NCBI GenBank assembly: GCA_965116885.1
Contig: OZ220741.1
Location: 2,176,001-2,240,000, forward strand
DNA: 64,000 nucleotides
Direction of reading: 5' to 3'
From: Candidatus Latescibacterota bacterium
Lineage (GTDB): Bacteria > Latescibacterota > UBA2968
Shown here: positions 1 to 14,894 of the stretch, one piece after another
How positions within the stretch are numbered: position 1 is the stretch's first letter
Layout of the letters: every line of letters starts with the position of its first letter
Position numbers and translations under genes: made by a program
The notes under the pieces: model-generated
Told to the model about the DNA's origin: nothing
The model's input: the letters and a program-made list of their open reading frames with translations, nothing else
The model's database searches: none

Positions 1-3000
1 ATGCATCCCAAATCTTCACTTTTGCCGCGTATTTCGGTGTTGCGACCCGTGTCCGTTACCATGTGCCTTGTCGCACTATTGGTGTTGGGGGCGGTGGCGT
101 ATGTGCGCATGCCCGTCGAGATGATGCCCGATGGTTTGACACCGCCATTTTTGGCTGTGTCTGTTGGGTTTCGCAATGCCTCTCCACAGGAGACCGATCA
201 ACAGATTACCCTGCCACTGGAAGAGACGCTGCGTACCGTAAAGGGTATTAAGTCCATGCGTAGCTACAGCTCTCGGGGCGTGCGCGTGCATATGGAATTT
301 CGCCAATATACAGATATGGTGGCTGCGTACAATCAGGTTTCAGACCGGCTCGAGCGCCTCAAGCCCTTGCTGCCAGAAGAGGCGCGAGACGAGGTGCGTA
401 TTCACAAATACGATCAGGATTCGAAGTCTGTTATGTATGTGTCTGTGTCGATAGACTCGACCATTACAGAACCCTTTCAGTTTATCGAGACCTTTGTGCA
501 ATATCCTCTGGAGCGCGTGGATGGGGTTGGGCGCGTGGATATTTTTGGCGCGGATCGCAAGGAAGTGATGGTGGAGGTGGATCAAGAGCGCATGAGGGCG
601 CGCGGTGTGCGCATTGGCGAGATTGTTTCGACCTTGAGGGGCGACAATTTTTCACTTGCCGGGGGGTATGTGCGGGAGGGACCAAAGAAATTTTACGTGC
701 GGTCGCTGGCGCAGTATGTCACGTTGCGGGAAATTGAAAATATCCAGATTCAATCGCGGGCAGGCAAGGTGCGCCTGGGCGATGTGGCTTCGGTGGTTTT
801 CGAGGTGCCCGAAAAATCGTGGACGCAGCGCATTGATGGCAAAAGAGGTATGAGTTTTGGTATCAAACAGGAATCGGGTGCAAATATCGTGGATGTGACC
901 GATCGGGTTTTAGCGAAATTGAAAGCTATCGAAGAAGATCCGCGCATGGCCGGGCAGGTGTCGTTTCAAGTGCTGTTCAATCAGGGATTTTTTGTCAAGG
1001 AATCGATTCGCAATCTTCGGGAAACCGGACTTTGGGGCGGGTTATTTGCCGCGCTGGTGTTGTTGTTCTTTTTGCGTACCGTGCGGATGACGGCCATTAT
1101 TACTTTGGCTATTCCGCTGTGTGTGATGATTGCGATGACCGCGTTGTATTTTGTCGGCTGGTCGCTCAATGTGGTGACTATGATGGGTCTTATGGTTGGG
1201 ATTGGGTTGGTTGTGGATAATTCTATTGTGATTTTGGAGAATATTTATCGCCGGCGTGGAAATGGCGAGGCACCCGAAGATGCTGCTATATTTGGCGCGA
1301 GTGAGGTGGGGCAGGCCATTACTATGGCGACGTTTACGACGGTGGTGGTGTTTTTGCCTATGATGTTGTTTAGCGGCGATATGTTTATGACTTTTTACAT
1401 GACGCGCCTGGGCGTTCCGGTTGGGGTGGCTCTGGTGGGGTCGCTATTTGTGGCGCTGTTGTTTATTCCCCTGGCATCTGTGCGATTGGGCAAAGGTCGG
1501 GTGCGTCCCAATTCCAAAATTATTGTGAAGGCGCGAGGAATTTATGAGCGCATGTTGAGTTGGACATTGCGACACCGCCGGGACGCGGTGTTGATCGCGC
1601 TGGCACTTGCGGCAACGACGATGTATCCCCTGGATAATCTGAAGCGCGCAGACCGCCACCGCGGTGGTGCGTTTAACGATTTGGATGTGCGGTTGAGGTT
1701 GCCGCGTCACTTTTCGCCGGAAGAAACCGAGGATATTGTGGGAGAGGTCGAGGAATTTCTGGAGGCGCGGCGTGAAAAATACGGCTATGAAACCCTGCGC
1801 GTTTACTACCGACCTGGTTACGGTAATCTGAGCTTGTATATGCCGGCCAAGAGCGATGATCCTTGGTGGTACGTGGCGTACAAAAATACGCGCAGTGCCT
1901 TGGGGATACCCGTTGCTGGACCAATGGAACGGGCTGAGGTCGCGGAAGATATTAGCAAAAATATGCCCAGATATGTGGGTGTGCGGCATTCTGTGGAAGG
2001 GGCTCGCAATGAGGGCGGTGGTAGTGATCCGGGCGTATCGATTTATCTGGAAGGCGATGATACTGAGGTCCTCATCAGTCTCGTCGATGAGGTCGAGCGA
2101 CGCTTGCGGCAGATCCCGTCTCTCGTCGGTGTTGATACGGATTTGGAACTTGCCGATGACGAGGTGCGGGTCGTGATTGATCGGGAACGGGCGAAACGAC
2201 TTGGGATTTCTGTACGGGATGTTGCGCGCTATATCTCTTATGGTCTGCAAGGGGTGTCGTTGCCTCGTTTTAAGTCCGATGATGGCGAGGTGCGGGTGCG
2301 GCTTTTTCTGGATAGGACAGACCGACAAAATTTGAATCAGTTGCGCAATTTTCCGTTTGAGGCCGACGATGGTACAGAAGTGGCTTTGAACGATGTCGCC
2401 TTCTTCCAGGTCTCGCGGGGAATGGGGCGCATTGCGCGGTACGATGGCAAGGTCAAGTTGCGTATCAGGGCTTATACGACGCGGACAGATATTAGGGGTC
2501 TGGCCGCGGAGATTGACAAAGTGATGGCTGGTCTCGAGTTGCCCCGCGGGTATTCGTGGGACAAGGGAGAGAGTTTCAAACGCCTTGAAGAGGACGCAGC
2601 CTCTGAGCGACTGGGGATTGTGATGGCGGTGACGTGTGTGTTTTTGTTGATGGGCGTTTTGTTCGAGTCGTTTATTTTGCCGTTTTCAGTACTTTTTTCA
2701 ATTCCATTTTCTTTTTTGGGTGTTTACTGGACGCTGTATTTGACAGGTACGCCCATGGATAGGATGGCGTCTGTGGGTGTGATTGTGTTGATCGGTGTGG
2801 TGGTGAATAACGCGATTGTGCTGGTGGATATGGTCAATCGCTTGCGTGCCGATGGCATGAATCGCTTTGATGCAATTATGGAAGCGGGGCACAATCGCTT
2901 TCGCCCCATTATGATGACGACGTTTACAACGGTATTTGGCTTGCTGCCCATGGCTGTGGGCGATAGCAATGCAATGGGCATGTCTTATGCGCCTTTGGGA

Positions 3001-6078: not shown

Positions 6079-6786
6079 ATGGAGGTTGTGATGTCTGTTA
6101 ATCGCCGACGTTTTCTATGTCAGTCCGCTGCATTGGGTGCGGCGGTTTTTGTGACACCAGGGGTTTTTGCCGAGCAACTGACGCTTACGCCCCGGCAGAC
6201 CGAGGGTCCGTTTTATCCGGATAAGATGCCGCTGGATGTCGATAATGATCTCGTGATAATCAACGATGCGATTACGCCCGCAGTGGGAGAGATTACGCAT
6301 TTGACCGGGCGTGTTCTGGATGTGAATGCCAATCCCATAAAGAATGCCATAGTGGAGATCTGGCAGGTCGATAGCAATGGGGTTTATATCCATACCGAGG
6401 CTCCGAGGCGCGACAGGCGAGACGCGAATTTTCAGGGTTTTGGGCGTTTTGAGACGGGATCTACGGGTGAGTACCGCTTTCGGACGATTAAGCCCGTGCG
6501 GTACGGGGGGTCGCGAACCGCTCATATTCATTTTGCGATTAATAAAAATGGGCACCGGCTTTTGACGTCGCAGATGTACGTGAAAGACAATCCGGACAAT
6601 GAATGGGATTCTATTTTCAGAAATACGGGTCGCGCGTCTCACGATTTGTTGTCCGTGCCGTTTAAGCCATTGCCCGGGTCTGAGGTTGGCGAATTGACGG
6701 CAAATTTTGATGTTGTGATTGGCGAGTCGCCCGAAGACCGGGAAAATGACCGAGGGCGACGAGGCCGACGGCGCGGGTGGTGGTAA
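6079..6786 (+). CDS. Tat-exported intradiol ring-cleavage dioxygenase (protocatechuate 3,4-dioxygenase-like)
   Basis: NRRRFL twin-Arg signal; EGPFYP, VEIWQVD..GVY, FRTIKP..Y, AHIHF (Tyr/Tyr/His/His iron ligands). Start may be 6091. Confidence 0.88.
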   Translation: MEVVMSVNRRRFLCQSAALGAAVFVTPGVFAEQLTLTPRQTEGPFYPDKMPLDVDNDLVIINDAITPAVGEITHLTGRVLDVNANPIKNAIVEIWQVDSNGVYIHTEAPRRDRRDANFQGFGRFETGSTGEYRFRTIKPVRYGGSRTAHIHFAINKNGHRLLTSQMYVKDNPDNEWDSIFRNTGRASHDLLSVPFKPLPGSEVGELTANFDVVIGESPEDRENDRGRRGRRRGWW

Positions 6787-6801
6787 AAAGATAGGATATG
6801 C

Positions 6802-6830
6802 TTGACGGAATGATCATTTCTGGCTATTCT
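6802..6830 (+). promoter_or_regulatory. Sigma70-like promoter with palindromic operator candidate in the spacer
   Basis: TTGACG-N17-TATTCT; the spacer holds the palindrome AATGATCATT (6809-6818). Confidence 0.55.
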
Positions 6831-6891
6831 TTTTTGCACTGATGGTCCATTTCGACGACTGTGGTAAAAGTTCTGGCTAAGGATTTGCTGA

Positions 6892-7293
6892 ATGCATAGA
6901 ACACCCGAGATTGTTTTCCGGGCAATGAAAGAGGATTTTGATGGTAAACCTCTCGTGGAAAGGTCGGCAAGGGCATTAGGAGTTCGCATAAGTGGACCAT
7001 CTGTAGATATCTCAATTGATGAGAAAGGCGAAGTGCTTCCTAAGACGGGAGGGATGTCTGTAACGCCAGATTCTCTTCATCTGCTGCCGTATATAAGAAA
7101 GCCCAAAGCTTTGGGTGGTGAAGGACGCGACCCGGTTTTTTCTTTTCAAGTGATCAATTTGCCTTCTATTTTAGCTCTACGTAGAGATACATCAAGGCAC
7201 GCGCTTGTTGAACCATCGAAGCCCTGTTTGTTCGAGGAATATGAGCAAAATTTACATGGCACCAGAGAAGATTGGGTGAAATGTCATGAGTGA
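6892..7293 (+). CDS. Tse2-like ADP-ribosyltransferase-fold toxin candidate, stand-alone
   Basis: VFR10, LGVR, GGMS56V, RH103ALVEP..LFEEYEQNL pattern recalls the R-S-H triad of the Tse2/ADPRT family. Recognised from memory, not searched. Confidence 0.6.
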   Translation: MHRTPEIVFRAMKEDFDGKPLVERSARALGVRISGPSVDISIDEKGEVLPKTGGMSVTPDSLHLLPYIRKPKALGGEGRDPVFSFQVINLPSILALRRDTSRHALVEPSKPCLFEEYEQNLHGTREDWVKCHE

Positions 7294-7564
7294 AGCTTTC
7301 GAGCGATATCGTTCTTTAGAACGCGATCTCATTTATATCCGCTGGCAACATGCAGGATTTGAATCTGATGAAGAAGAGACTATTCTGGATGTCATGGAAG
7401 AAGTTTGGTATGAATTGAGGGAAAAAGAACAGCAGTTACTGTACAGTGAAGGGACGAAGTCCCTAATCCGCGATACCATACCACATTATTGTTTGATCGA
7501 TGGAGACATTTGGAGGGAGTCCCATTCCGGCAAATTGATTCGTGATCTTGGAGGTGTAGCCTAA
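7286..7564 (+). CDS. Small acidic helical protein, candidate immunity/antitoxin
   Basis: Overlaps the upstream stop; acidic core ESDEEETILDVMEEVWYELREKE. Confidence 0.6.
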   Translation: MSEAFERYRSLERDLIYIRWQHAGFESDEEETILDVMEEVWYELREKEQQLLYSEGTKSLIRDTIPHYCLIDGDIWRESHSGKLIRDLGGVA

Positions 7565-8298
7565 TGTATCTTACTGCACAACGGATTCTGCGGATAAAGG
7601 ACAAGAAGGGGGGGATCAATGTTTTTCTGTATCAACACGGTAAGCATGATTTGCCTCCAAATGCACAATTTAGCAACGTTGACTGGATCACCAATCAGTA
7701 TCCTGGAAAACTTATCGCGGAATCTGTAGATTTAGTGCCAGGAGGCAATGCCGTTCTGAGCTTTATCGATATTGTTGGCAGGGAGGGGCTCGACAAAGAG
7801 TGCATACAGTATTTCCTCGACCAAATGGAATGCAGTGTTAAGGATGTACATACTCCCATTACCGAATCTACTTCGAATCTCGCCGTTAAATTTGGAATTA
7901 CATTGGGATTAAAAGGACAGGAGATAAGAGAGTATAAAGCCCTCAAGGAAAGGGCGATGCATCTGTTGGAGTCGCCCGAGCCTCCCAGGTGGCGCACTGG
8001 GAACCCGTGGATAGTGATTTATCGCAATATTTCTCATAATCAGGAAACATTTAGCTTATCATCAGAAACCGCCGAGAAACTCAAACAGATACATAACGGG
8101 TCTTGGGACTCTTCGAGGGTTTCAATAGATCGACACACAAAGCATAATGTCGAACTCATACACGGTGACCTGATACAGCACATCGCACCGGTCTTAACCG
8201 ATTTAACGCTTGAACAAATTGCTATACAGGGTGGATTAATACTTTGCGATTCTCTGACCCAAAAAAAAATTAAATGGCCTGAACTGAGGGAAATATAG
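7564..8298 (+). CDS. Hypothetical protein, third gene of the AT-rich operon
   Basis: 244 aa, GGAGGT SD, TAATG coupling. No family recognised. Confidence 0.7.
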   Translation: MYLTAQRILRIKDKKGGINVFLYQHGKHDLPPNAQFSNVDWITNQYPGKLIAESVDLVPGGNAVLSFIDIVGREGLDKECIQYFLDQMECSVKDVHTPITESTSNLAVKFGITLGLKGQEIREYKALKERAMHLLESPEPPRWRTGNPWIVIYRNISHNQETFSLSSETAEKLKQIHNGSWDSSRVSIDRHTKHNVELIHGDLIQHIAPVLTDLTLEQIAIQGGLILCDSLTQKKIKWPELREI

Positions 8299-8323: not shown

Positions 8324-8674
8324 TTGCGACGTTTTACTCACATTCTAATTATTGCATTGACGCTCATGGGAACGGTTGCGCCCTGTCTGTGCTGGGCGCA
8401 TCAGGCTTCGATGCCAGAGTGTCATGCTGCAGCAGAGTTGAAAGATTGCTGTTGTAGCAAAGAGGCGGCGGTCGATCAGCAGATGCCGGCGAGCGATCTG
8501 GCTGTTTTGCCGGGTGAATGGCAAAATCCAAAGTTGAATTTGACTTGTGTGACGTTGTATCCCTCGGTCGTTCTTTCCCAGAGTGATTTCCTTCCTTTTA
8601 TGGTGGATGATCGCCAGAGAGCTTTGCGATCACCGCCCGATCTGTATCTTCTCCACGCTGCATTTCTCATCTGA
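8324..8674 (+). CDS. Secreted Cys-rich leader protein (DUF2946/HYC_CC_PP-like) upstream of the cus operon
   Basis: Signal-like N-terminus, CH and CCC motifs, C-terminal RSPPDLYLLHAAFLI; TTG start. Confidence 0.65.
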   Translation: MRRFTHILIIALTLMGTVAPCLCWAHQASMPECHAAAELKDCCCSKEAAVDQQMPASDLAVLPGEWQNPKLNLTCVTLYPSVVLSQSDFLPFMVDDRQRALRSPPDLYLLHAAFLI

Positions 8675-10251: not shown

Positions 10252-11640
10252 ATGAAATATCTCATTCCAATTCTATCATTGATTGTGGGATTTGTTGGTG
10301 GGGTCTGGATTTCGGGAGATACGCATACAGAGCAGGTACAGGCGTTGGAAACATATATTTGTCCGATGCATCCGACGGTGGTATCGGATAAGCCGGGTAG
10401 TTGTCCCATTTGTGGTATGGATCTGGTAGTGAAAGAGGTGGATGGTGGGCACGGTCATAAGATGCAGGCGGATCACGAGACATATATTTGTCCGATGCAT
10501 CCGACGGTGGTGTCGGATAAGCCCGGGTCTTGTCCAATCTGTGGTATGGATCTGGTGGTGAAGGAGGCTGATGCGTCGTCAGTTCAGGATGGAAGCGTGC
10601 AGATTGATCCTGTGACGATTCAGAATATTGGTGTGAAGACGATGGTGGTGGAAAAGCAACCTTTGACGCGGACGGTGCGCGCGGTGGGCAGGGTGGATTA
10701 TGACGAGACGCGGATTATGGATGTGAATAGCAAGATTGCGGGGTGGGTTGAGCAGTTGTATGTGGATTATACCGGTCAGTGGGTGAAAAAGGGGCAGCCT
10801 TTGCTGGCGCTTTACAGCCCTGAACTGGTCACGGCGCAGGAGGAGTATTTGACGGCTCTGGATTATGCGGAGAGAATGCGCGGGGGGGTGGATCGAGATG
10901 TGGCGCAAAGTGCCGATGATTTGCTCGTTGCTGCGCGACAAAGGTTGTTGTACTGGGATATTTCGGCGGGTCAGATTGCGGAGTTGGAAAAGACGCGACA
11001 GGTTGGGCGAACAATGCCCATTCTGGCTCCTCGTTCGGGGATTGTGACGCATAAAGATGTGCTGGAAGGGGCGCATATCGGGTCGGGTCAACATCTGTAT
11101 CGCATTGCGGATCTGTCTGTGGTGTGGATTTATGCAGATGTGTACGAATACGAGATGCCGTGGGTTTCCAGAGGGCAGCGCGCAGAGGTGTCGCTGTCTT
11201 ATTTGCCGGGTGAGCAATTTGAAGGCAAAGTGGATTATATTTTTCCTTTTATGAATGAAAAGACGCGCACGGTTCAAGTGCGGATGGTTTTTGACAATGC
11301 AGATGGCGCGCTTAAACCGGATATGTATGCCGATGTGGTGATTCGTTCCGAGGTGGGGCGTGAGGGCGTTGTGATACCTGTTCAGGCGGTGATTCATTCG
11401 GGGACGCGCAGGGTTGTTGTGATGGCTCACGGAAACGGCAGGTTTGAACCGCGCGGGATTCATATCGGGGTGGAGACCGAGGATGGCTATGAGGTCATGC
11501 ACGGGCTAAATCCGGGGGAGCAGATTGTGACTTCGGCGCAATTTTTGATCGATTCAGAGAGCAATTTAAAGGCTGCACTGGCGGGGATGCTTGGAGATCC
11601 TGTGAAACATGGTGGACATAGTGGACATGGTGGACATTGA
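10252..11640 (+). CDS. cusB: CusB-like RND periplasmic adaptor with two heavy-metal-binding YICPMHP repeats
   Basis: Two copies of YICPMHPTVVSDKPGSCPICGMDLV; GWVEQLYVD, YSPELVTAQEEYL, LKPDMYA, AQFLIDSES; His/Gly tail. Confidence 0.88.
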   Translation: MKYLIPILSLIVGFVGGVWISGDTHTEQVQALETYICPMHPTVVSDKPGSCPICGMDLVVKEVDGGHGHKMQADHETYICPMHPTVVSDKPGSCPICGMDLVVKEADASSVQDGSVQIDPVTIQNIGVKTMVVEKQPLTRTVRAVGRVDYDETRIMDVNSKIAGWVEQLYVDYTGQWVKKGQPLLALYSPELVTAQEEYLTALDYAERMRGGVDRDVAQSADDLLVAARQRLLYWDISAGQIAELEKTRQVGRTMPILAPRSGIVTHKDVLEGAHIGSGQHLYRIADLSVVWIYADVYEYEMPWVSRGQRAEVSLSYLPGEQFEGKVDYIFPFMNEKTRTVQVRMVFDNADGALKPDMYADVVIRSEVGREGVVIPVQAVIHSGTRRVVVMAHGNGRFEPRGIHIGVETEDGYEVMHGLNPGEQIVTSAQFLIDSESNLKAALAGMLGDPVKHGGHSGHGGH

Positions 11641-11669: not shown

Positions 11670-14600
11670 ATGCTAAATCGAATTATTGAAGCGAGTGTCG
11701 AGAATCGGTTCCTGGTGGTGATCGCTACTTTGATGGTGATTGGATGGGGGGTGTACGCGATGCTGAATACGCCACTGGATGCGATTCCCGATTTGTCGGA
11801 TGTGCAGGTGATCGTGTTTAGCGAATATCCGGGTCAGGCGCCGCAGGTGGTGGAGGATCAGGTGACGTATCCGCTGACGACTGCGATGCTGTCCGTGCCT
11901 TATGCAAAGACGGTGCGGGGATATTCGTTTTTTGGCATTTCTTATGTGTATGTGATTTTTGAGGATGGTACGGATATGTATTGGGCGCGCAGTCGGGTGT
12001 TGGAGTATCTCAATTCCGCGTCTGATAGATTGCCGCAGGGGGTGACGCCAAAGCTGGGGCCAGATGCGACGGGTGTGGGTTGGGTTTATCAATATACGGT
12101 GCTGGATACGACTGGAAGATACGATCTTTCGGAGTTGAGGTCGATTCAGGATTGGTATTTGCGATATGAGTTGAGCAGTGTGCAGGGCGTGTCAGAGGTG
12201 GCGTCTGTGGGTGGATTTGTGAAGCAGTACCAGGTGGTTGTAGATCCCAATCGCTTGCTGGCATACAATATTCCCTTGCAGAAGATTCGGATGGCGATTC
12301 AGCGCAGCAATAATGATGTGGGGGGGCGGCTGGTCGAACTGGCAGAGACGGAATTTATGGTGCGTGGGCTGGGGTATATCCAGTCTGTGGCGGATATAGA
12401 GCAGATTGCTCTGGGTGTGGATGAACACGGTACGCCGATTCGCGTAAAAGATGTTGCGACTGTGCAGGTGGGGCCAGAACTCAGAAGGGGATTGGCCGAG
12501 TGGAATGGCGAGGGGGAGGTGGTGGGGGGAATTGTGGTAATGCGGTATGGGGACAATGCGCTCAAAGTTATCGATCGGGTGAAAGAGAAGATGGAATCGC
12601 TCAAACCCGGTCTTCCCGAGGGCGTGGTGGTGGTCGCCAATTACGATCGCTCGGCGCTTATTCTGCGCGCGGTTGATCATTTGCAGAAGAAGCTGATTGA
12701 AGAGATCGCGATCGTGGCTGTGGTGTGTATTGTTTTTTTGCTCCATTTTCGCAGTGCTTTTGTGGCTGTTTTCACATTGCCGATGGGGATTTTAATTGCG
12801 TTTGCCGCGATGTATCACCAGGGTGTCAATTCGAATATTATGTCTCTTGGGGGTATTGCAATTGCTATTGGGGCGATGGTGGATGCCGCTATTGTGATGA
12901 TTGAAAATGCACACAAGCATATCGAACGCGATGGCGGGACAAAGTCGCATAGTGAGATGATTATCGCCGCTTCGAAAGAGGTGGGGCCTGCGCTGTTTTT
13001 TTCGCTGTTGATTATTACGCTGTCGTTTTTGCCGGTTTTTACACTGGAGGCGCAGGAGGGGCGGTTGTTTAAGCCGCTCGCATATACCAAAACTTATGCT
13101 ATGGCGGCGGCGGCATTTTTGGCGATTACGGTTGTGCCGGTGCTGATGACTTTTTTTGTGCGCGGCAAAATTCGATCTGAGGCGAAGAATCCCATCAGTC
13201 GTGTGTTGATCTATCTGTACCGGCCCGTGATTGATTGGGTGTTGCGACATCGGGTGCTGACTGTGGTGTTGGGCGGGTTGGTGTTGTTTGTGACGGTGTT
13301 TCCTTTTCGGGATATTGTGGTGTCGCGTTTTTCGGATCGGCCGCAGAGTTTGACTTATAAGGCATTGGTGAAGTTGGACGCGCTGTTTCCTATGGAAAAA
13401 ATTGGATCGGAATTTATGCCGCCTCTGTACGAGGGCGATCTGTTGTATATGCCCACGACATTGCCAGGGATATCGATTACGAAGGCGCGGGCGTTGTTGC
13501 AACAGACCGATAAAATTATTCGCACTTTTCCCGAGGTTGAACACGTATTTGGCAAAATTGGTCGGGCGGAGACGGCGACAGACCCGGCGCCGCTGTCGAT
13601 GATTGAGACGACGATTATGCTCAAGCCCGAGTCCGAGTGGCGAGAAGGGATGACGCCTCAGAAATTAATTCGGGAATTGAATCAGGCGGTGAAATTTCCG
13701 GGATTGACCAATGCGTGGACTATGCCGATTAAGACGCGCATCGATATGCTTTCAACGGGTATTAAGACGCCTGTGGGTATCAAGGTGGTGGGGGATGATC
13801 TGGAGACATTGCAGATGTTGGGCGAGAAGATCGAGACGGTGGTGCGCGATTTGCCGGGTACGCTGAGTGTGTTTGCCGAGCGGGCTGCGGGTGGCAATTA
13901 TCTGGATTTTGAGATCGATAGGCAGGCTGCTGCGCGTTATGGGCTGACGGTTGGGGATGTGCAGGATGTTATTATGTCGGCGTTGGGCGGGATGAATATT
14001 ACGCATACTGTAGAGGGTTTGGAGCGCTATCCGGTGAATTTGCGTTATGGCCGAGAGTTGCGCGACAATTTGCCCGCGCTTCGGCGCGTGCTGGTGCCCA
14101 CGCCGATGGGGGCGCAGATTCCCATTGGACAGTTAGCAGATCTTCACATTCGGAAGGGTCCACCGGGTATTAAGAGCGAGAATGCGCGGTTAAATGCGTG
14201 GGTCTATGTCGATATTGAAGGCGTGGATGTGGGGACTTATGTCGCGCGGGCGCAACAGGCGGTGTTGGAGCAGGTGCAGATGCCACCTGGATACACCGCG
14301 ATCTGGAGCGGTCAGTATGAATATATGTTGCGGGCAGAGAGAAAGTTGAAGGTTGTGGTGCCCGTGACGCTGGCGATCATTTTTGTGCTGTTGTATCTGA
14401 ATTTTAGAAATGTGACTGAGACCGCGATTGTGATGCTTTCACTGCCTTTTGCTCTGGTCGGTGGGATATGGTTGATGTATATTTTGGATTACGATATGAG
14501 CATTGCCGTGGGGGTTGGGTTTATCGCGCTGGCGGGATTGGCTGCCGAGACAGGGGTGGTGATGCTGATTTATCTGGATCAGGCTTATGATAGTATTAGA

Positions 14601-14894
14601 CGCGAAAAAGGCGATGTTTTGACGCTGGCGGACTTAAACCAGGCGGTGATGTCCGGTGCTGTGGAGCGGGTGCGTCCCAAGTTGATGACGGTGTTTTCAA
14701 CGATGATGGGTCTGTTGCCGATTATGTGGTCAACGGGTACGGGGTCCGAGGCGATGAAGCGCATTGCTGCGCCTATGGTGGGAGGGATGGTGTCATCGAC
14801 GATTTTGACGCTGCTGGTGATTCCGGCGATTTATGCGTTGTGGAAAGAGAGAAGGGTATCCGCAGATGACGCAGAAAAAACGCGAGTAATTTGA
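11670..14894 (+). CDS. cusA: CusA/SilA-type Cu(I)/Ag(I) RND efflux pump
   Basis: PLDAIPDLSDVQV, GPDATGVGWVYQY, GSEFMPPLYEGDLLYMP, DPAPLSMIET, NAWTMPIKTRIDMLSTG. Confidence 0.93.
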   Translation: MLNRIIEASVENRFLVVIATLMVIGWGVYAMLNTPLDAIPDLSDVQVIVFSEYPGQAPQVVEDQVTYPLTTAMLSVPYAKTVRGYSFFGISYVYVIFEDGTDMYWARSRVLEYLNSASDRLPQGVTPKLGPDATGVGWVYQYTVLDTTGRYDLSELRSIQDWYLRYELSSVQGVSEVASVGGFVKQYQVVVDPNRLLAYNIPLQKIRMAIQRSNNDVGGRLVELAETEFMVRGLGYIQSVADIEQIALGVDEHGTPIRVKDVATVQVGPELRRGLAEWNGEGEVVGGIVVMRYGDNALKVIDRVKEKMESLKPGLPEGVVVVANYDRSALILRAVDHLQKKLIEEIAIVAVVCIVFLLHFRSAFVAVFTLPMGILIAFAAMYHQGVNSNIMSLGGIAIAIGAMVDAAIVMIENAHKHIERDGGTKSHSEMIIAASKEVGPALFFSLLIITLSFLPVFTLEAQEGRLFKPLAYTKTYAMAAAAFLAITVVPVLMTFFVRGKIRSEAKNPISRVLIYLYRPVIDWVLRHRVLTVVLGGLVLFVTVFPFRDIVVSRFSDRPQSLTYKALVKLDALFPMEKIGSEFMPPLYEGDLLYMPTTLPGISITKARALLQQTDKIIRTFPEVEHVFGKIGRAETATDPAPLSMIETTIMLKPESEWREGMTPQKLIRELNQAVKFPGLTNAWTMPIKTRIDMLSTGIKTPVGIKVVGDDLETLQMLGEKIETVVRDLPGTLSVFAERAAGGNYLDFEIDRQAAARYGLTVGDVQDVIMSALGGMNITHTVEGLERYPVNLRYGRELRDNLPALRRVLVPTPMGAQIPIGQLADLHIRKGPPGIKSENARLNAWVYVDIEGVDVGTYVARAQQAVLEQVQMPPGYTAIWSGQYEYMLRAERKLKVVVPVTLAIIFVLLYLNFRNVTETAIVMLSLPFALVGGIWLMYILDYDMSIAVGVGFIALAGLAAETGVVMLIYLDQAYDSIRREKGDVLTLADLNQAVMSGAVERVRPKLMTVFSTMMGLLPIMWSTGTGSEAMKRIAAPMVGGMVSSTILTLLVIPAIYALWKERRVSADDAEKTRVI

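Follow-up and report, generated by a model that had tools for sequence, protein, structure and literature searches.

A translationally coupled three-gene block

The window analysed here is a stretch of 64,000 nucleotides (nt) from the genome of a Candidatus Latescibacterota bacterium (assembly GCA_965116885.1, contig OZ220741.1, forward-strand positions 2,176,001 to 2,240,000); this genome consists of one contig and is 98.4% complete. Positions 6802 to 8298 of the window hold three co-oriented open reading frames (ORFs), which encode a predicted toxin of ADP-ribosyltransferase (ART) fold (ORF1), its predicted antitoxin (ORF2) and a third protein (ORF3) that is retained while the pair in front of it changes. 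Together they form a real, conserved and modular three-gene system whose third component is uncharacterised and widespread. An earlier, sequence-only reading of the same DNA had put forward a candidate new toxin–antitoxin module with a third component at this position. The features concerned are as follows (aa, amino acids).

6802..6830, + strand: sigma-70-like promoter, TTGACG (-35), 17-nt spacer, TATTCT (-10), from a consensus scan
6809..6818, no strand: perfect palindrome of 10 bp, AATGATCATT, within the spacer of the promoter, possible operator, by direct reading
6892..7293, + strand: ORF1 (A1), 133 aa, stand-alone Tse2-like ART-fold protein, predicted toxin
7286..7564, + strand: ORF2 (B1), whole gene, 92 aa
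7286..7465, + strand: ORF2 N-terminal domain, residues 1-60, acidic and cassette-specific, predicted toxin-neutralising part
7466..7564, + strand: ORF2 C-terminal tail, residues 61-92 and stop, a module common to unrelated B2 antitoxins
7550-7554, + strand: Shine-Dalgarno sequence GGAGG of ORF3 inside the last ORF2 codons, by sequence reading
7564..8298, + strand: ORF3 (C1), 244 aa, constant third component, two alpha/beta domains

Throughout, A, B and C denote the first, second and third gene of the block, and numbers after these letters denote families; type-1 loci carry A1 and B1, and loci are referred to by L numbers. As the sequence-only reading had noticed, the block is richer in AT than its surroundings, with a GC content of 0.438 against a window mean of 0.508 (standard deviation 0.026 over 1497-nt windows), which places it in the lowest 1.8%. 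Likewise, its three frames are translationally coupled: ORF1 and ORF2 overlap by the 8 nt ATGAGTGA, and ORF2 and ORF3 meet at TAATG with a 1-nt overlap.

The promoter named in that reading stands on firmer ground in comparison than in isolation. Promoter-like sites between 6600 and 8900 number 3 against 3.9 +/- 1.9 in shuffled sequence, a count not above chance, but both hexamers are kept 5' of ORF1 in 9 of the 16 type-1 loci compared (the window, L001, L002, L003, L007, L013, L020, L022 and L024). The -10 element and early leader (TGGCTATTCTT...CCGACGACTGTGGTAAA) also precede type-2 cassettes, the alternative pairs described below, in L016, L023, L006 and L014. The claimed palindrome in the spacer is indeed a perfect 10-mer in the window; it is perfect there only, and relatives hold an imperfect GAAAT...ATTTC.

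Contigs related or identical to the block are present in four metatranscriptomic libraries. A 220-nt contig of library X13 covers 6838-7050 with 0 differences to the window and begins about 8 nt past the -10 element, a weak hint compatible with a transcription start at 6838, and a 2025-nt contig of library X17, with 102 differences, spans 6700-8060 unbroken. Contigs of this kind prove neither transcript, start nor strand, such libraries can hold DNA, and uncovered stretches in X13, X16 and X18 carry no meaning.

Exchangeable cassettes before a constant third gene

ORF3 relatives turned up at 25 loci when one genome per species was scanned. The three genes are co-conserved: ORF1, ORF2 and ORF3 lie in the same order at 17 of these loci (tblastn; two of the 17 decayed), and the other 8 have an alternative upstream pair or its remnant in the same slot. 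The alternative pair consists of A2 (about 170 aa, without a Pfam family) and B2, a protein of 136-144 aa whose TPR matches are weak and below threshold. In five genomes yet another pair, A3 (125 aa) and B3 (119-125 aa), stands in front of C2 (about 243 aa), a distant paralogue of ORF3 at 23% identity; A3, B3 and C2 have no Pfam match. The full tally comprises 37 loci, 29 of C1 type and 8 of C2 type, in the following states.

Type 1, three genes intact: window and 16 others, 17 of 29 C1
A1 with an in-frame stop at codon 86: L001, 1 of 29 C1
C truncated: L024, 1 of 29 C1
All three genes decayed: L025, 1 of 29 C1
A1 reduced to its last 11 codons, with B1 intact and a frameshift in C: L055, 1 of 29 C1
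Type 2 intact: L006, L010, L014, L016, L018 and L023, 6 of 29 C1
A2 frameshifted, with a 192-aa B2::B1 hybrid: L009, 1 of 29 C1
A2/B2 remnant, C intact: L008, 1 of 29 C1
C2 loci intact: L059, L061 and L063, 3 of 8 C2
A3 with a stop at codon 3: L062, 1 of 8 C2
A3 absent: L060, 1 of 8 C2
B3::C2 fusion: L070, L071 and L072, 3 of 8 C2

Each A type is strictly paired with its own B type. A1 and B1 occur together at 20 of the 29 C1-type loci (17 intact, with L001, L024 and L025 decayed), a B1 relative being present at 20/20 A1-bearing loci; B3 is found at all 8 C2 loci and an intact A3 at 4 of them. A B gene or B remnant abuts C in 37/37 loci. The junctions are equally regular: A and B overlap by 8 nt in type 1 and by 4 nt in types 2 and 3, the stop codon of B either overlaps the start of C or directly adjoins it, all three B types are in frame up to that start, and the Shine-Dalgarno sequence with a TAATG or TGATG junction recurs in 25 of the 26 loci listed.

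What the pairs share lies at the end of B. Following unrelated B1 and B2 N-terminal domains, a common tail reads ...W.D.DI.R.SNS.TP[VI]R.L.EVA, and identity in its 24-aa core reaches up to 79% across types 1 and 2 (L004 vs L016). The exchanged segment accordingly has its left boundary in the leader and its right boundary inside B. On a quick IQ-TREE phylogeny of ORF3 (31 rows, C2 as outgroup) the type-2 label, carried by 6 rows, requires 6 changes, a count as low in 500 of 500 shuffles, and well-supported branches force at least 3. For example, L012 (type 1) and L018 (type 2) are sisters at 100%, and L006 (type 2) falls within a 96% clade with the type-1 loci L007, L020 and L050. Overall, cassettes of A and the B N-terminal domain have been repeatedly exchanged before a conserved unit of tail and ORF3.

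ESM Atlas places A2 with clusters of hypothetical proteins (score 0.97), a lead to Hjc scoring only 0.78, and profile searches of the PDB with the A2 and A3 families gave nothing meaningful. Two impressions from motifs stay unsupported, as no relation was detected: A2 as a PD-(D/E)xK nuclease (hhalign against the nuclease-like neighbours described below, probability 0.2%) and A3 as an ART of the R-S-E type (hhalign against the ORF1 family, probability 0.6%).

Decay within the loci follows an order. A is dead or missing with B present in 7 of the 37 loci (L001, L009, L055, L060, L062, L071 and L072), and an intact A without B occurs in 0/37; this is the pattern expected if A is a toxin to which B is indispensable. 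In three genomes of the window's genus, B3 and the remainder of C2, from about residue 128-138 onwards, form one frame (L070:2968-3642, L071:2902-3648 and L072:2881-3636, all on the minus strand), the N-terminal domain of C2 being deleted. The junctions lie at similar short motifs, ENDF in B3 and ENFD in C2; of the accompanying A3 genes, that of L070 is intact, that of L071 is broken and L072 has none. The damaged C beside an intact A in L070 has lost only its N-terminal domain. Overall, the pattern suggests that B works with the C-terminal domain of C. Directly after the fusion of L072 lies a PIN-domain gene (2384-2875, minus strand; PF01850, E 2.3e-5, 25.4 bits, above cut-off).

The module occupies at least four chromosomal contexts and therefore moves as a unit. 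It lies after a Dioxygenase_C gene in the window, L007, L013 and L020, and by ORF reading also in L004, L006, L008, L009, L016 and L023. In L012 (2501-9249) it sits inside a corrinoid methyltransferase operon, between genes for a B12-binding protein and a RACo activator. The third context follows DUF433 and DUF499 genes (L010:61-3953, with the same 1105-aa DUF499 ATPase-like ORF in L018:43-3903), and the fourth is near a 700-aa HerA-like (DUF87) gene and a 150-aa ORF (L015:1035-3763). The C2 version in L061 lies between RraA/sulfatase and other metabolic genes. Judged from upstream sequence, the corrinoid-operon insertion is also found in L005, L011, L015 and L017; the copy in this operon has no promoter of its own, and the ribosome-binding site of ORF1 comes directly after the upstream gene.

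Among 168 genomes of the phylum, the ORF3 profile (E<=1e-3) matches in 39: 15/30 of family f1, 10/22 of f2, 13/76 of f4 and 0 in other families. Within the window's genus, 14 of 20 genomes match. All members with known genomic context belong to uncultured Latescibacterota. Of the 25 loci in the per-species scan, all but two come from metagenome-assembled genomes titled Latescibacterota or Latescibacteria. The two exceptions, titled Gemmatimonadota (L014 and L019, that is, G047:C39 and G126:C54), group in the window's order and class, and their titles may be misassigned.

The predicted toxin, its partner and the third component

ORF1 has a single Pfam match, PF18648 (ADPRTs_Tse2), which extends over profile positions 8-136 of 137 with E 1.7e-4 and is the only match to this family in the window genome. 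At 22.7 bits (22.2 in the whole-genome scan) it falls under the gathering cut-off of 26.6. A database search returned 30 relatives at 62-92% identity, 29 of them 131-133 aa long and one a 79-aa fragment (P0030); 14 of the 30 carry a precomputed PF18648 label, and 21 of the 22 that were aligned match the profile at E<=0.01 (best 4.6e-8). Since ORF1 scores below the cut-off while its relatives match, we file it as a divergent sister group of PF18648 rather than as a curated member. Structure points the same way: the top Foldseek match of the AlphaFold2 model is chain 5ako_C, Tse2 (probability 1.00, TMq 0.56), VIA-align to the same chain gives Z 9.2 with a root-mean-square deviation of 3.1 A over 112 aligned residues at 24% identity, and the VIA rows after Tse2 are the ART-fold proteins KptA/Tpt1 at Z 5.5-6.0. 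A sequence profile of the ORF1 family did not reach Tse2 in the PDB (best E 0.31). On the near-full-length profile match, the matches of the relatives and Tse2 as top structure, ORF1 is a divergent, stand-alone Tse2-like ART-fold protein, which agrees with the fold that the sequence-only reading had proposed.

The residues singled out in that reading, R10 (VFRAM), S56 (GGMSV) and H103 (HALVEP), are all present and, together with E107, invariant in 22/22 aligned family members. R10, S56 and H103 may correspond to the Arg-Ser-His triad that the sequence-only reading ascribes to Tse2. The N-terminus reads as hydrophilic, and the Pfam scan of ORF1 found no PAAR or RHS domain, only the toxin domain, again as first read.

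ORF2 is the small and strongly acidic partner that had been described (isoelectric point, pI, 4.63; net charge -10). Its acidity is concentrated in residues 1-60, with 16 D/E against 7 K/R and a pI of 4.39, and this N-terminal domain is strongly conserved within type 1. No match to ORF2 was found in Pfam (E<=1), PADLOC, NCBIfam or PHROGs, and a profile of its family brought up nothing meaningful in the PDB.

ORF3 folds with good confidence (AlphaFold2 pLDDT 85.5, pTM 0.76, 2 of 5 models good) into two alpha/beta domains, residues about 1-141 and 148-244. For this protein Pfam (E<=1), PADLOC, NCBIfam and PHROGs gave no match, Foldseek of the model against the PDB nothing at E<=1e-3, and ESM Atlas no usable match; a VIA search against representatives peaked at Z 4.4, under the tool's own meaningful level, and the best PDB hit of the family profile, a heat-shock protein over residues 58-170 at E 0.018, is likewise not meaningful. 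More broadly, PHROGs gave 0 matches for the 8 proteins scanned, and PADLOC-DB v2.0.0 returned 0 families at E<=1 for ORF1-3, A2, B2 and the L009 hybrid. In line with the suggestion that the combination is unnamed, PADLOC, Pfam, NCBIfam and PHROGs contain no model that puts a name to the system.

The family itself is large. ORF3 has at least 120 close homologues, and a joint C1 and C2 profile matches 617 of 1.84 billion cluster representatives at E<=1e-3, 342 at <=1e-10 and 77 at <=1e-30. Most members are 235-250 aa long and match from residue 1. An N-terminal MYLT.HRV motif and G17, H25, G48, P59, F67 and D69 are invariant even between C1 and C2. A Pfam domain was detected in 0 of 38 sampled members, and the 20 clusters looked up are called only 'hypothetical protein'. 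A metagenome scan for the wider context of the superfamily yielded 2 loci only; tblastn against plasmids with P0193 and searches of viral contigs with A4 and P0194 yielded none.

The C-terminal domain of ORF3 (about residues 145-240) also exists as stand-alone proteins of 103-121 aa and at the end of proteins of 246-474 aa (L057:1519-2326, L067:1472-3230, L074:2488-3772, L028:384-722, L064-L066, L068 and L073). In L057, L067 and L074 the C-domain gene directly precedes or overlaps a 165-174-aa PD-(D/E)xK-like gene, a likeness given by PDDEXK_5 matches at E 4e-4 and 1.7e-3, below cut-off. Such a pair is a possible two-gene toxin–antitoxin relative of the three-gene system.

Interpretation and alternative explanations

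A close architectural parallel is offered by toxin–antitoxin–chaperone (TAC) systems. In the accessible parts of the published accounts, a single family of SecB-like chaperones serves HigBA, MqsRA and HicAB pairs by way of variable, transferable C-terminal chaperone addiction (ChAD) tails on the antitoxins (PMC5105189). The chaperones of CmdTAC and HigBAC additionally respond to phage proteins as sensors, and their diversion leads to loss of the antitoxin and release of the toxin (PMC11618068; 10.1101/2024.02.24.581848); as far as these portions go, all TAC systems use a SecB-like chaperone, and the sensing of phage structural proteins has been shown only recently. M. tuberculosis HigBA1-SecB(TA) and E. 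coli HigBAC resemble the present block in the order of toxin, antitoxin and third gene, co-oriented and coupled, in the service of unrelated pairs by one third-gene family, and in the antitoxin's C-terminal extension adjoining the third gene (PMC5105189; 10.1101/2024.02.24.581848). Here, in contrast, the third protein is a two-domain protein of 244 aa with no match to SecB, Pfam or a solved fold, and none of the toxins is of HigB, MqsR or HicA type.

The anti-phage system CmdTAC of E. coli is the comparison that proved the most useful lead of the sequence-only reading. As far as its published description could be consulted, CmdT is an ART, CmdA is a small antitoxin of two N-terminal helices and a long unstructured C-terminus, and the third gene protects the antitoxin, CmdC being a SecB-like tetramer (PMC11618068). 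The present block shares the three genes, the ART-fold toxin and the small antitoxin. It differs in that CmdC is SecB-like and in that CmdT is compared to exotoxin A, with catalytic Y41, and not to Tse2 (PMC11618068).

We judge the chances evenly balanced that the block is a tripartite, modular TAC-like system of toxin, antitoxin and third component with a non-SecB third protein. We say that it would work like a TAC, not that it belongs to the TAC family, because ORF3 is not SecB-like by sequence and no fold match was listed. Under this proposal, ORF1 would be a cytoplasmic Tse2-like ART-fold toxin, presumably acting through NAD, and ORF2 its cognate antitoxin, whose acidic N-terminal domain would bind and neutralise it. 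The C-terminal tail of ORF2 would serve as a transferable tag, and ORF3 as the constant partner and guardian of that tag, its C-terminal domain holding and stabilising ORF2 by direct binding. The N-terminal domain of ORF3 would be left free to sense a trigger, e.g., phage infection or stress, in a presumed defence role. If ORF3 were diverted, ORF2 would be lost, probably to proteolysis, and ORF1 would arrest the cell.

Several observations weigh against this proposal. The first concern the proteins themselves. ORF3 has no detectable likeness to SecB or any chaperone (Pfam; no SecB row listed by Foldseek or VIA), and the AlphaFold2 model of ORF1 (pLDDT 75.5) was confident in only one of five attempts. 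Tse2 toxicity is NAD-dependent, and the available text of its description grades the ART activity only as one that it 'may involve' (PMC4899435). One complex prediction of ORF2 with ORF3 from their own alignments gave no answer, with a score of 0.01 against a mark of 0.32; made without controls, it counts neither for nor against binding. Proximity to defence islands, which the sequence-only reading had named as a check, is seen at few loci: only L010 and L018, with their DUF433/DUF499 genes, and L015, with its HerA-like gene, adjoin candidate conflict genes. ORF1-3 also lack a PADLOC match.

The tail speaks both for the proposal and against it. Leaving out L027, L021, L008 and the C2 loci, tail identity and ORF3 identity correlate with Spearman rho 0.41 over 96 cross-type pairs; over all 253 pairs the Mantel rho is a modest 0.27, with 57 of 2000 permutations as high, and the association could be explained by physical linkage alone. 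The pooled dN/dS of the tail core, 0.47, likewise counts in favour, although it comes from pairs that were preselected (31/253, at >=50% identity) and are not independent. The last 4 tail residues overlap the GGAGG of ORF3, so the constraint there is at the nucleotide level and not on the protein. Finally, ORF3 is truncated in L024 beside an A1 and B1 that read intact (A1 has G75S at an otherwise invariant glycine), and the C2 N-terminal domain is missing beside an intact A3 in L070, so that survival does not in every case require a complete C.

A broader claim can be offered tentatively, and we regard it as rather doubtful: that with ORF3 begins another class of 'addiction' proteins, unrelated to SecB, with a novel two-domain fold and at least 617 clusters. 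Its C-terminal domain would read a short tag on unrelated antitoxins and its N-terminal domain would sense phage or stress, one sensor thereby arming interchangeable warheads (the Tse2-like ART, a nuclease-like protein and a third toxin). Proteins that consist of the C-domain alone, next to PD-(D/E)xK genes, would then be the minimal ancestral form.

Third genes need not be guardians; those of omega-epsilon-zeta and paaR-paaA-parE act as regulators. By analogy, the block could be a conventional type II toxin–antitoxin pair with a regulator or second antitoxin module, ORF3 binding the toxin or operator DNA, chiefly through its C-terminal domain. The antitoxin position of that domain, alone or terminal and upstream of or overlapping the PD-(D/E)xK-like gene in L057, L067 and L074, speaks for this account, as do the resemblance of the B3::C-domain fusions to a two-domain antitoxin and the palindrome in the promoter spacer. 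The palindrome is not conserved, however, and neither ORF3 domain is basic (pI 6.07 and 6.32), nor was any helix-turn-helix, ribbon-helix-helix or AbrB family or fold found with Pfam, Foldseek or VIA. Direct binding of the toxin is hard to square with one C serving three unrelated A families, and we hold the account to be unlikely.

Less probable still, in our estimate, is that a plain two-gene toxin–antitoxin or toxin–immunity pair merely lies beside an unrelated conserved gene, with the shared tail and the swaps produced by hotspot recombination. The modest tail-to-ORF3 correlation, open to linkage, and a tail end fixed by the Shine-Dalgarno sequence would suit such an arrangement, and ORF3 is intact where the toxin is dead (L001, L008, L009, L060 and L062). 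Against it, ORF3-type genes keep an upstream pair or remnant across the four or more contexts, with B abutting C at every locus of the tally; the 23%-identical paralogue has a pair of its own in the same layout; and B is fused in frame to C in three genomes and runs in frame to the C start in all its types.

Swapping of toxin and immunity pairs is typical of polymorphic toxin loci, which lends some colour to an interbacterial-competition module in which ORF1 is secreted as an effector, ORF2 confers immunity to it and ORF3 serves as adaptor for secretion or as chaperone of the effector. The closest structure to ORF1, Tse2 of the P. aeruginosa H1 type VI secretion system (T6SS; 5AKO, PF18648), is an Hcp1-dependent effector with an acidic cytoplasmic immunity protein, Tsi2, according to the available portions of its descriptions (PMC6099711, PMC4899435), and ORF1 likewise has a small acidic partner directly 3'. 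We nevertheless consider this role very improbable: TssC/VipB (PF05943) and Hcp (PF05638) have 0 matches in the near-complete window genome, whereas both controls match in E. coli, so T6SS delivery of ORF1 is unlikely; neither the window nor any of the 12 loci with scanned neighbours has a VgrG, PAAR or Rhs gene flanking ORF1; and the ORF2 family profile finds no Tsi2 chain among PDB sequences at E<=10. The block also departs from Tse2-Tsi2 in the sub-cut-off score of ORF1, in its third, co-inherited gene and in a toxin that can be swapped for non-ART cassettes. Nor is ORF1-ORF2 an orphan tail of an Rhs or other polymorphic toxin, a possibility that the sequence-only reading had itself raised: a Dioxygenase_C gene and then a promoter of its own, conserved among relatives, lie upstream, and ORF1 at 133 aa is a toxin domain only, longer fused relatives not having been searched for.

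Two further systems help to place the block. Panacea, in the accessible part of its description, likewise joins one conserved protein module to many unrelated toxins, but its promiscuous element, PanA, is the antitoxin itself, in two-gene systems (PMC8832971). In the present loci every toxin comes with an antitoxin domain of its own, and what stays constant is a separate third protein together with a short tail. DarTG has an antitoxin whose macrodomain reverses ADP-ribosylation; the Pfam scan at E<=1 assigned no family to either ORF2 or ORF3. A survey of titles and abstract openings outside subscription journals found no description of this gene family or of a TAC-type system with a non-SecB third protein.

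Should the TAC-like proposal prove correct, the design of a tagged antitoxin with a dedicated guardian would have evolved more than once, and a function would be assigned to a family whose protein clusters, at least 617 of them, lack annotation. The loci would amount to a natural swap experiment on the uncoupling of sensor and warhead, the same third gene being found with three toxin types. Tse2-like toxins, in turn, would extend from secreted T6SS weapons to intracellular toxin–antitoxin use.

The genes downstream of the block have features of their own. At 8324-8674 of the window lies a 116-aa Cys-rich ORF (CLCW...CHAAAE..DCCCSKE) that matches no Pfam family and whose N-terminus is hydrophobic; it is kept just 3' of ORF3 in L004, L009, L016 and L023 and precedes OEP/efflux genes. 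Further on, a 462-aa ORF of membrane-fusion type (10252-11640), upstream of a 1074-aa ORF (11670-14894), contains a tandem duplicate of a 28-residue segment and a His-rich C-terminus (HGGHSGHGGH). By its sequence it looks like a Cus-like metal-efflux adaptor with doubled metal-binding heads.

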